Source: Nanobdellota archaeon (GTDB lineage Archaea > Nanobdellota > Nanobdellia > Pacearchaeales > GW2011-AR1). Taken from it: a DNA stretch of 31,962 nt. The notes beneath the pieces are model-generated. The model was not told where the DNA came from. It was given only the letters and a program-made list of their open reading frames with translations, and searched no databases. Below are positions 6,217 to 27,251 of the stretch, in pieces (the first letter of the stretch is position 1; every line of letters begins with the position of its first letter). The stretch covers positions 1-31,962 of the forward strand of contig JAHJMH010000019.1 in assembly GCA_018821425.1 (NCBI GenBank), written 5' to 3'. The position numbers were made by a program, and so were the translations under genes.

Positions 6217-6918
6217 ATGAAAGCAATTATACTTGCTGCAGGGTTCGGGACGCGACTTCATCCCTTTACTCTTGAAAAGCCTAAATCCCTTCTTGAAATA
6301 AAGGGAATGCCCCTTATTGATTATATAATTGAAAAAATTCCACGGAGCGTTGACGAAACCATTCTTGTTTCTAACGCAAAGTTTTATAGTAGTTTTCTAG
6401 AATGGAAGAAAACCTCTGGGGCAAAATTGAAGATTTTAAATGATGGGGTTCTTGTGAATGAAGAAAGACTTGGGGGAATCGCTGATTTATGGTTGGCAAT
6501 TCAAAGAGAAAAGATTAATGACGATTTACTGATAATCTTGGGAGATAACTTTTTTGATTTCAACTTGGAGACGTTTCTTGATTTGTTTTATAAAGATAAA
6601 AAAATATCTATAGGATTGTATCAAACGGATTTTCAAAAAGCGAAAAAATTTGGCGTTGCTGAAGTCGAAGGTAATGACTTAATTGATATTGAAGAAAAAC
6701 CAGACAAGCCTAAATCTGATCTTATCGTAACTGGACTTTATTTAATTCCAAAAGAAAAAATTAGTTTGATTCAGGAATACATGAAAACAAATAAAGACAA
6801 AGGAGGAATAACATATCTCATAAAGGACTGGCTGGGTAAGGAAAAGATAAAAGCCTGTACCTTTAAAGGAGGGTGGGAAGATATTGGCGATGTTGAGACT
6901 TATGAAAAATTAAAATGA
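6217..6918 (+). CDS. Sugar-phosphate nucleotidyltransferase (NTP_transferase family)
   Basis: MKAIILAAGFGTRLHPFT..KPK.LL, GDN, IEEKP, W.DIG. Confidence 0.9.
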   Translation: MKAIILAAGFGTRLHPFTLEKPKSLLEIKGMPLIDYIIEKIPRSVDETILVSNAKFYSSFLEWKKTSGAKLKILNDGVLVNEERLGGIADLWLAIQREKINDDLLIILGDNFFDFNLETFLDLFYKDKKISIGLYQTDFQKAKKFGVAEVEGNDLIDIEEKPDKPKSDLIVTGLYLIPKEKISLIQEYMKTNKDKGGITYLIKDWLGKEKIKACTFKGGWEDIGDVETYEKLK

Positions 6919-8135
6919 CAACAATATTGGGAATTGAATCGACGGCGCACACTTTTGGGATTGGTGTCGTTCGCGACGGGAAAGTTTTATCTAATGTTAA
7001 AAGTTCTTACACTACAGAATCGGGAGGAATAATTCCGATGGATGCGGCGAAGCATCATAAGGAAGTCGGTGTGGAAGTTTATGCTGAATCTTTGGAGAAA
7101 GCAGGAATCAGCGAAGGGGAGATTGATGCAATTGCTTTTTCTCAAGGTCCTGGTTTGGCGCCTTGTTTAATTCAAGGAATTAATTTCGCGAAAGAACTTT
7201 CTAAGAAATTTGAGAAGCCACTTGTTCCAGTTAATCACTGCATCGCGCATCTTGAGATTGGGAGAACTACTGGTGCAAAAAATCCCGTAATGCTTTACGC
7301 CTCGGGAGCGAACACACAAGTTATTGCTTATGCGTCGGGGAAGTTCAGAGTTTTCGGTGAGACTCTTGATATTGGTGTTGGGAATTTTATCGACAACTTC
7401 GCAAGGCACGTGGGTATTGGTTTTCCGGGAGGGCCAGAAATTGAAAAACTTGCCAAGCAAGGGAAGAATTTTATCGAACTTCCTTATAGCGTTAAAGGGA
7501 TGGATATTTCTTTGTCCGGAATTTTAACAAATTTGAAACAGAAGTTTGATAAGATTAAGAATTTGCGTTCGCCTTCGGCTCACTCTGAGGGGCACCAGGT
7601 TTCCCCCTACACTACCCCCTCCTTTAATTTGCGTTCGCCTTCGGCTCACGGAATTAATGGCTTCGAAACCGCCTTCGGACAGGTTTCTCCGCAAGGGAAA
7701 AATATTAAGCAGAAATCTTCTTCGAAGGTTAATCTTCTTCTGAAAAAATCCGAGTGCAGCGACGGCAAAATTGTAAATTACACTCTCGCAGATCTCTCTT
7801 ATTCGCTTCAAGAAACTGTTTTTGCGATGCTTGTTGAAACTGCCGAGCGCGCGTTGGCTCATACTGGGAAGGAAGAGCTTTTACTCGGCGGTGGAGTTGC
7901 GTGCAATTCTCGTTTGCAGGAAATGTGTCGTATCATGTGCAAGGAGCGAGGCGCGAAATTCTTTTGTCCCGAACGTTCGTTGTTAGTGGATAACGCGGCG
8001 ATGATTGCTTTTCTCGGAGAGATAATTTTTAAGATGCGGCGTAATGGACGTGCTCGCCCGCCCGCCCAAGACTTGGCAGATTTAGATATCAAGCCGAGGC
8101 AGAGGACTGATGATGTGGAGGTTGATTGGCGGTGA
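6915..8135 (+). CDS. kae1: tRNA t6A threonylcarbamoyltransferase Kae1/TsaD with an internal insertion of about 60-70 aa
   Basis: ILGIESTAH, VNHCIAHLE, SGANTQ, GETLDIGVGN..D, GGGVACN, DNAAMIA, RTDDV...WR. Confidence 0.95.
   Translation: MTTILGIESTAHTFGIGVVRDGKVLSNVKSSYTTESGGIIPMDAAKHHKEVGVEVYAESLEKAGISEGEIDAIAFSQGPGLAPCLIQGINFAKELSKKFEKPLVPVNHCIAHLEIGRTTGAKNPVMLYASGANTQVIAYASGKFRVFGETLDIGVGNFIDNFARHVGIGFPGGPEIEKLAKQGKNFIELPYSVKGMDISLSGILTNLKQKFDKIKNLRSPSAHSEGHQVSPYTTPSFNLRSPSAHGINGFETAFGQVSPQGKNIKQKSSSKVNLLLKKSECSDGKIVNYTLADLSYSLQETVFAMLVETAERALAHTGKEELLLGGGVACNSRLQEMCRIMCKERGAKFFCPERSLLVDNAAMIAFLGEIIFKMRRNGRARPPAQDLADLDIKPRQRTDDVEVDWR
7560..7700. repeat. REP-like repeat cluster inserted in frame in kae1
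   Basis: 24-bp aatttgcgttcgccttcggctcac at 7560-7583 and 7626-7649 (66-bp period), a third gccttcgga near 7671, and two caggtttc copies. Confidence 0.85.
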
Positions 8136-16370: not shown

Positions 16371-16440
16371 GTGCGCGCTTCGCGCGATTGATGTTGCTCC
16401 GAAATGCCTCGAACGCCGGCGGGCACGAAGTTTCTCCGTG
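16371..16440. repeat. GC-rich REP-like palindromic sequence after gyrA
   Basis: gcgcgcttcgcgcg hairpin, similar to cgctcgcttc at 92-101 and 1101-1120. Confidence 0.4.
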
Positions 16441-26451: not shown

Positions 26452-26583
26452 GGTCCGTTAGTCTAATGGTAGAACACCTCGTTTACACGCAGAAGAACAA
26501 AGGTTCTTCCGCACCATCTCCTTTGGGAGAAACGGAAACTGCTAAAAACCGAGGAAGCGGAGGTCCGATTCCTCCACGGACCA
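26452..26583 (+). tRNA. tRNA-Val(TAC) with a 61-nt intron at 37/38 (26488-26548)
   Basis: GGTCCGT/ACGGACC acceptor, CCTCG/CGAGG anticodon stem, complete BHB (TTTA/TAAA central helix, GCAG/CTGC outer helix). Confidence 0.92.
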
Positions 26584-27106: not shown

Positions 27107-27251
27107 GCGCTGTTGGTTTAGTGGTAGAATATCTCGTTGCCAAGGTAAGGAACCTAGGTTCCTTGACCGTCAACCTCCTAAGAATGCTCGTTCCGAGATT
27201 TTTGGGAACTGCAAGGACGAGGTGGCCCGAGTTCGATTCTCGGACAGCGCA
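27107..27251 (+). tRNA. tRNA-Gly(GCC) with a 74-nt intron at 37/38 (27143-27216)
   Basis: GCGCTGT/ACAGCGC acceptor, TTCGATT T-loop, BHB central helix TTGC/GCAA. Confidence 0.92.

Follow-up and report, generated by a model that had tools for sequence, protein, structure and literature searches.

The 31,962-nt stretch of DNA analysed here, the window, lies on contig C27 of G000, an archaeal genome of 613 kb in 84 contigs that is 91% complete. Its kae1 gene encodes a tRNA t6A37 synthase of the TsaD/Kae1 family and carries a 216-nt inserted block, which is probably an in-frame copy of a modular palindromic repeat that is translated as a disordered surface loop. The modules of the block recur in the genome, close kin lack the insert, all kae1 copies examined are open, and a second core gene, for a TYW2/Trm5-like methyltransferase, has such inserts in relatives. 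These results bear out the core proposal of a first-pass annotation of the window, in which a non-autonomous repeat family adds in-frame peptide to a core gene. Homologs of the Kae1 protein in public records carry the names Pacearchaeota or Nanoarchaeota.

The inserted block and its repeat modules

The features of the gene and of the insert are given below; alleles with and without an insert are called filled and empty, respectively.

6915-8135, + strand: kae1, tRNA t6A37 synthase, TsaD/Kae1 family (open reading frame (ORF), 406 aa)
7552-7559, + strand: 5' flank AAGATTAAG (K I K), which covaries with the presence of the insert
7560-7775, + strand: inserted block, 216 nt (72 codons), absent from G005, from other same-genus genomes (one of which has a different insert) and from 2IVN
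7560-7583, + strand: module B copy 1, the outer element end, an exact 24-nt repeat
7586-7625, + strand: module A, an 8-bp hairpin, then TACACTA and a C-rich tail, which opens many G000 tRNA introns
7626-7649, + strand: module B copy 2, an exact 24-nt repeat and the start of a B-linker-C half-element
7650-7664, + strand: linker GGAATTAATGGCTTC, for which intergenic copies have GATTGATGTTAAC, giving TGA and TAA in the kae1 frame
7665-7687, + strand: module C, a conserved hairpin (stem of 6 + 3 bp, one bulged base, loop TTC), supported by covariation
7688-7749, + strand: degenerate right half in inverted orientation, with the CTTCGAAG palindrome (homology to ~7719, the remainder by eye)
7750-7772, + strand: inverted B-like end, assigned by inspection, complementary to 7560-7573 (terminal inverted repeat or terminal helix)
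7776-7794, + strand: 3' flank AATTACACTCTCGCAGAT (N Y T L A D), like other filled alleles and unlike the closest empty relative

The kae1 product matches Pfam PF00814 with an E value of 2.5e-77, and the HCIAH metal-binding motif and the other invariant columns of Kae1 are intact. A search of the genome gives one match, the only copy found. The Kae1 of P. abyssi (2IVN) aligns to residues 4-211 and 288-405 of the query, which has 76 residues at the loop where 2IVN has 3. In the DNA alignment the extra block falls between the codons for KQKFD and NYTLAD, set between two AATT tetranucleotides (7560-7563 and 7776-7779), and its in-frame reading is NLRSPSAH...DGKIV. The first-pass annotation had noted that Kae1, at 406 aa, holds extra sequence, and the ORF, the 2IVN alignment and the relatives without the block agree. 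An AlphaFold2 model built with 26 aligned homologs (mean predicted local distance difference test score, pLDDT, of 72) has residues 218-290 as coil, placed between helices 201-217 and 291-317; pLDDT falls below 50 at residues 229-285, and the remaining fold is confident. Alignment of orthologs and mapping on a predicted structure, both proposed in the annotation, thus put the insert in a loop that is absent from kin and modelled as disordered coil between helices.

Every part of the insert recurs elsewhere in G000, as found by a short-word BLAST search of the genome. The 24-mer AATTTGCGTTCGCCTTCGGCTCAC occurs in exactly two copies, at 7560-7583 and 7626-7649, 66 nt apart as first described, where none is expected (100 shuffles); near-identical copies of this module B are found at C16:16103 and C55:12007. 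The 24-mer had been called a GCC-TTCG-GC hairpin motif; it is indeed a repeat, with a weak hairpin, given that it can form only a 3-bp GCC/GGC stem. Two other elements of the early description need to be redrawn. The supposed GAGGGG...CCCCTC spacer (7586-7625) is a repeat module in its own right, module A, which has 98% identity to C46:1460-1500 and occurs in about 20 copies in G000 by nhmmer profile search; a strict pattern finds 13 copies, compared to 0 in the reversed control. The supposed third degenerate copy of the 24-mer (~7668-7680) is the loop region of a separate conserved hairpin, module C (7665-7687). At least 8 of the 9 C stem pairs are present in 18 of 23 family members, and the stem positions show 2 to 4 types of Watson-Crick pair, so that the C stem is supported by covariation.

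A profile search for B-linker-C finds about 20 half-elements in G000, all of which, except the kae1 copy, lie outside long ORFs. The genome-wide count of the motif that had been suggested at first pass shows modules that recur mostly between genes or in or near tRNA genes, with one of about 20 half-elements in an ORF. Four head-to-head pairs of half-elements form palindromes of ~140 nt (C55:12011/12153, C38:902/1043, C7:1536/1675 and C16:16107/16241), and inverted B ends are seen in all four. The degenerate right half of the insert is homologous to C55:6577-6648, with homology extending to ~7719. The two ends of the insert can pair with each other: inspection gives 11 pairs with one internal mismatch loop, and the minimum free energy fold joins both ends. 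By inspection and by the fold, 7560-7573 is complementary to 7759-7772, so that terminal inverted repeats are present, and the ends are likewise complementary in the kae1 copies of P0003 and P0079 (CACTCGC/GCGAGTG in P0079). The kae1 copy can be summarised as a complete palindromic element, made up of B-C, a degenerate half in inverted orientation and an inverted B, with a further 66 nt (A and a second B) nested after the first B.

Rfam, applied to the window and to 12 repeat-bearing loci, gives tRNA and rRNA matches only, and no family for A, B or C. Three other identities for the modules were tried and rejected. A small antisense MAKSVLELTSIV-like ORF is present in some B-C copies, but most copies lack a start codon and the stem changes are compensatory. 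Module A was rejected by inspection as a C/D-box or H/ACA guide RNA, given that it has neither C and D boxes nor a pseudouridylation pocket, and its likeness to 16S helix 45 was rejected because the pairing register differs.

That the block is an assembly artefact, a repeat wrongly joined into the kae1 gene of a metagenome-assembled genome, is hardly credible. The bin is fragmented, and repeats break the TYW2-like gene in the assemblies G007, G021 and G009. However, an independent Logan contig from run X1 (1113 nt, depth 559) covers 7300-7856 with one mismatch, four groundwater metagenome runs from four studies hold all of the sampled words, and homologous inserts occur in many unrelated assemblies. 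Run X1 also has loose ends that match the G005-type empty allele at depths of ~4-17, and run X9 has a low-depth joint that skips 7539-7799, which is most simply the empty allele of a relative. A contig from run X6 (525 nt, depth 193) is identical over 7555-7864, that is, over the insert and 90 nt beyond, and has 27 differences over 7865-8034, mostly at third-codon positions; it may be a recombinant kae1 allele with the same insert or a chimera joined at a conserved 31-mer.

Relatives, reading frame and a second gene

Six-frame searches, which are unbiased by gene calling, were used to look for kae1 in relatives; of 40 searched, 38 have the gene. Where a same-genus genome gives a full match, residue 213 of the query is followed directly by residue 288 (matches over 1-213 and 288-406). 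The exception is G018, with an unrelated N/K-rich insert of ~40 residues in the same Kae1 loop. The closest relative, G005 (86-89% identity), lacks the insert. Across the order, a six-frame search found kae1 in 142 of 151 genomes, and a loop insert in 10 of these 142; all ten belong to family f1, from nine genera, and all are open and stop-free. Among 118 parseable sequences of 120 listed top database homologs, 32 have a loop insert, of +9 to +94 residues, and none contains a stop.

Most filled homologs read EK[MI]N...NYTL. Many of these inserts begin as NL[RHY]SPSA[HR], the product of module B read in the frame used here, and finish as SE.SE.NYTL or RA[SK].., the product of inverted B; a minority of the filled homologs form a separate short class, ES.S.RDDS.EPKY. 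In P0003, P0079, G170 and G160 the kae1 DNA contains B, the linker and a C hairpin that is intact, with site, orientation and frame all as in G000. In G138, from another genus, module A alone is found in the kae1 loop (contig C26), antisense and in frame, where it is read as KGGVDKGDLGSL; this is an independent arrangement at the same Kae1 hot spot. The short class of loop-1 inserts (S.S.RDDS.EP) is seen in P0045, P0061, P0092, P0105 and P0120. A second Kae1 insertion hot spot lies near the C-terminus, after GEIMF (alignment columns ~425-480), with 20-60 extra residues in P0002, P0067, P0079, P0107 and P0117.

Inserts of this kind are also found in a gene for a TYW2/Trm5-family methyltransferase (PF02475). 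In G002 this gene contains module A, antisense and in frame, read as KGGVSVRGTLVPLK, and the ortholog from G024, 90% identical to that of G002, is without it. Longer in-frame inserts with recognisable A-like or B-like sequence are present at the same site in G005, G052 and G008, and the gene is split across contigs at that site in G007, G021 and G009. The hot spot lies between QGDVKRVAK and KFDVIVMPRP (G002:C1:135882-136691). No ortholog of this gene was found in G000 by tblastn.

The reading frame separates the kae1 copies from the intergenic ones. Of 18 half-elements that lie between genes, 14 have a stop in the corresponding frame. Their linker consensus, GATTGATGTTAAC, supplies TGA and TAA, and the kae1 copies read GATATTGATGGC or similar, with an extra linker base that removes both stops. 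Frame is kept across many lengths, stops have been lost and the orientation of the modules is free, as would be expected from selection on a translated insert and not from a spliced intron.

The constant frame, and the recurrence of NL[RHY]SPSA[HR] and SE.SE.NYTL among filled alleles, would also suit a lineage-specific functional protein segment, for example a docking loop, under protein-level selection. This explanation is very improbable, given that the recurring motifs are translated DNA modules that are also found as intergenic repeats, that the interior of the insert is hypervariable in length and sequence, of low complexity and predicted to be disordered, and that the closest relatives do without it.

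Module A in tRNA genes and the question of splicing

ARAGORN finds 36 tRNA genes in G000, of which about 20 have introns of 32-156 nt. An A-type hairpin with a C-rich tail begins 1-9 nt past the 5' splice site in 10 of 19 parsed introns, and an eleventh tRNA intron with an A-type opening was mis-parsed. The A hairpin varies among the tRNA introns by compensatory changes. The intron of tRNA-Arg(TCG) on C21 contains A and then a B-like hairpin, the order of kae1 7586-7650, with 90% identity over 48 nt, and module A opens introns of tRNA-Cys and tRNA-Lys also in other genera of the family. Two tRNA genes in the window have such introns:

26452-26583, + strand: tRNA-Pro(GGG), intron with an A-type module (Rfam tRNA; the ARAGORN intron boundaries are off)
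27107-27251, + strand: tRNA-Gly(GCC), 74-nt intron opening with an A-type module (ARAGORN and Rfam tRNA)

The A-opened introns are located on C3, C10, C12, C17, C21, C55, C65 and C2, and in both of these tRNA genes. The C-rich tail of the intron can pair with a downstream GGAG or GGAAG, and a second GC hairpin often comes next; no Rfam family was found for the tRNA-intron module. Segments that carry A also adjoin tRNA genes at C46:1447-1575, C39:380-856, C2:7870-7965 and C12:10575-10670, where exact copies, 12-14 nt long, of the 5' or 3' end of the tRNA itself (Pro, Ile, Lys and Leu) enclose them, and the arrangement beside tRNA-Ile recurs in another genus (G237). Integration could have left these segments as scars, or they could be an uncommon form of intron or split arrangement. 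Two ARAGORN assignments change when the intron borders are reset by the bulge-helix-bulge: tRNA-Pyl(CTA) at C2:7952-8084 becomes tRNA-Lys(CTT), and tRNA-Phe(AAA) at C10:7144-7287 becomes tRNA-His(GTG).

The presence of module A just after the 5' splice site of many bona fide G000 tRNA introns bears on an alternative that the first-pass annotation had also raised, removal at the RNA level. Here the insert, or its 66-nt A-B part, would be an intron that is cut by the tRNA-splicing endonuclease and religated, such that mature Kae1 has normal length; endonucleases of broad specificity are reported in DPANN archaea (PMC3239211, PMC5829648). A scanner for the bulge-helix-bulge motif, in which two 3-nt bulges flank a 4-bp helix at the junctions, was validated by its recovery of 19 tRNA introns; in most of these the central helix has 4 bp and the outer helix 5-7 bp. 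It was applied to all junction pairs at kae1 with a 5' cut at 7500-7639 and a 3' cut no further than 7829. The top score there is 15, compared to top scores of 13-17 in 200 random genomic windows with the same search space, and it comes from AT-rich pairings that leave the insert in place. In addition, the filled alleles are all in frame and stop-free despite their many lengths, which is not required of introns, module A is found in either orientation inside ORFs, and the stops seen in the intergenic consensus are lost specifically from the copies in kae1. With no splice motif above background, RNA-level removal finds no support here and is quite improbable. Relaxed splice motifs at kae1 may be compatible with the sequence alone.

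That one modular structured family occupies three kinds of site in this family of DPANN archaea, being tolerated in tRNA genes through splicing, paired as palindromes between genes and tolerated in the loops of tRNA-modification enzymes through translation, is a rather doubtful proposition. If a preference for tRNA genes and the genes of these enzymes is real, it would suggest that tRNA introns are connected, by targeting or regulation, to the enzymes acting on nearby anticodon-loop positions, and the kae1 copy could even be processed as RNA by an endonuclease of relaxed specificity.

Some further members of the repeat family lie outside both kae1 and the tRNA genes. One is in the window:

16372-16437, + strand: B-C-like family member, intergenic, with convergent genes on either side (weak nhmmer match)

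This element directly follows the stop of a 1223-aa ORF; B takes the form of a perfect GCGCGC hairpin, and CTCGAACGCCGGCGGGCAC is found within an expanded C hairpin. The 16S-23S spacer at G000:C8:1702-4744 contains module A, antisense to the rRNAs, and the spacer tRNA-Ala at that locus is called on the strand opposite both rRNA genes. An A-like module at G000:C20:370-470 comes after GAGGAAGGTCCGGCC, a sequence similar to the conserved region CR-I in RNase P RNA; at the gathering score, Rfam makes no RNase P call there.

Origin of the insert, comparison with known elements and significance

The preferred account, that of a translated palindromic repeat, would begin with the insertion, at the DNA level, of a modular palindromic element into the loop between two Kae1 helices. 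The basic element would be ~140 nt long, with two inverted B-linker-C halves, complementary ends and AATT at its borders, and the G000 kae1 copy would have gained in addition the 66 nt of module A and a second B. The element would stay in the mRNA and be translated as a disordered surface loop that the protein tolerates. Only variants that keep the frame and contain no stop would survive, because kae1 is essential and single-copy, and this would explain why all kae1 copies are open when the intergenic ones mostly are not. The shared site, orientation, frame and distinctive flanks in several genera point to one old insertion. Recombination between alleles would since have carried it further or removed it, and genomic copies would have exchanged modules.

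The flanks covary with the insert: empty alleles read ESKKY[SKN]L and filled alleles EK[MI]N...NYTL. G000 has KQKFD, like its empty sister G005, but directly beside the insert it reads KIKN... and NYTLAD, as distant filled alleles do. This mosaic is taken as a sign that the filled segment may have moved between kae1 alleles by recombination with short flanking tracts. An alternative is many precise losses from one old insertion, which the data do not separate from recombination. The kae1 half-element of G000 is as close to the intergenic copies of its own genome (78-85% identity) as to the kae1 copies of other species (70-77%), which is compatible with exchange among genomic copies.

Several results weigh against this account. 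No autonomous parent element with matching ends was found in the 91% complete genome. AATT flanks the kae1 copies and also module A in the TYW2/Trm5-like gene of G002, and no longer duplication is seen at the intergenic copies; the AATT may belong to the inverted repeat, so that a duplication at the target site is not established. Three metatranscriptomes from one source study have none of the sampled words, and no RNA run with the stretch is listed. The RNA fold of the whole insert is not significantly more stable than shuffles (z -1.5). The patchy presence of the insert amounts to 18 state changes on the kae1 tree, compared to 25-32 in ten shuffles inspected, and that tree is a FastTree of close sequences made without the loop columns. 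Lastly, the pairing of the C hairpin is kept in the kae1 genes of five species through compensatory differences: the stems are AAAATC/GATTTT in P0003 and G170, AAAACT/AGTTTT in P0079, AGAACA/AGTTCT in G160 and GAAACC/GGTTTC in G000. This could reflect selection on nucleic-acid structure within kae1.

The last point leads to a further alternative, in which the hairpin element acts in cis in kae1, where selection on nucleic-acid structure would keep it, and the peptide is incidental. It might, for example, stabilise the mRNA, make translation pause or let a tRNA-binding enzyme regulate its own gene. In the kae1 of G000, P0003, P0079, G170 and G160 the C hairpin is intact, with 8-9 of 9 pairs and different compensations, and both insert-bearing genes, for Kae1 and the TYW2/Trm5-like enzyme, encode members of families that act on tRNA position 37. 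A role in cis is nonetheless unlikely. About nine tenths of the species of the order, and nearly all of the genus, live without the insert, and recognisable modules are lost in the filled alleles of G018, G121 and G149. Intergenic members could account equally well for the compensated stems, through exchange or re-insertion, as the identities given above allow, and the bias in genes is drawn from the two genes examined.

The genome encodes candidate mobilising enzymes. Three Y1_Tnp matches are found in G000, one intact (C40:12856-13203) and two at contig ends. The first-pass annotation had suggested a possible link of the repeats to a TnpA enzyme of repetitive extragenic palindromic (REP) elements, or REP-associated tyrosine transposase (RAYT), and this link is not borne out: the intact Y1 gene is flanked by other hairpins and not by the modules, and the three Y1_Tnp contigs have no match to A, B or C. 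G000 also has one DDE_Tnp_1 gene (C11), in an element with inverted repeats unrelated to modules A, B and C, and a tyrosine recombinase fragment, and none of these genes is associated with A, B or C; neither TnpB nor DDE_3 was found in the genome at its present completeness. The Y1 transposase on C40 is IS200-like, of 135 aa with an HVHLIV motif, and lies beside a sigma-70-like ORF of 353-405 aa (C40:11356-13438). Such an ORF is unexpected in an archaeon, and C40 may be a bacterial contaminant or else a mobile element that came from bacteria.

By analogy, the kae1 element seems to work like a Rickettsia palindromic element (RPE), to which it is likened by behaviour and not filed as a member by sequence. 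RPEs (Ogata et al. 2000) are described in PMC10969869 as multicopy elements of ~100-150 bp that lie in frame in protein genes. Both systems have a palindromic multicopy repeat, here with about 20 half-elements and four inverted pairs of ~140 nt, both have in-frame insertions in conserved or unrelated genes with an extra peptide compatible with the fold, here a predicted one, and in both a single insert can be common to orthologs of related species. The differences are that the host here is an archaeon, Pacearchaeota-like DPANN by the names of its homologs, that the element is modular with one module common to tRNA introns, and that 1 of about 20 copies is in an ORF, the rest being intergenic or in or near tRNA genes. 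The same review gives 44 RPE insertions in genes of R. conorii.

Archaeal transposable elements of the miniature inverted-repeat type (MITEs) are listed for Sulfolobus, Halobacterium and Haloquadratum (PMC10969869). Like these, the element is small (~140-210 nt), multicopy and without its own coding capacity, with complementary ends and nested or composite copies. It fits a loose definition of a MITE, save for a parent insertion sequence (IS) and a firm target duplication: no autonomous IS with matching ends was found, and the sole DDE transposase element has unrelated inverted repeats. Short hairpin-forming repeats, often in inverted pairs between genes, in a genome that encodes Y1_Tnp proteins recall the REP/RAYT system; however, other hairpins flank the Y1 gene on C40, the Y1 contigs lack the modules, and the units here are larger and composite.

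Another comparison is with the tRNA introns that transpose in Thermoproteales and with archaeal mRNAs that contain bulge-helix-bulge introns (reviewed in PMC4090602). A module common to the kae1 insert and to tRNA introns calls to mind the transposition of introns from one tRNA gene to another, in that one family is present as introns in many tRNA genes and has a member in a protein-coding gene. The mRNA introns exemplified by cbf5 are short, frame-free and have the motif, whereas the kae1 copy is in frame and has no splice motif. An intein is likewise not indicated, given that the insert starts NLRS, ends GKIV|NY, has 72 residues and is modelled as coil, whereas inteins have an N-terminal Cys or Ser, a C-terminal His-Asn before a nucleophile, and splicing blocks. 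By these comparisons the element does not match a REP/RAYT unit, a bulge-helix-bulge intron or an intein.

In-frame selfish repeats are a textbook oddity of Rickettsia. No report of such repeats in archaea was found in the literature searched, nor in the MITE review PMC10969869. If the account holds true in ultra-small archaea, in-frame insertion would be a general means by which repeats survive where a genome has little DNA to spare. Through module A, the gain of tRNA introns is tied to dispersed repeats, and a concrete sequence family becomes available for studying the spread of tRNA introns in archaea. Such inserts enlarge universal marker proteins by 10-30% and break assemblies at conserved genes, and they can mislead both alignment-based phylogenies and the annotation of DPANN genomes.

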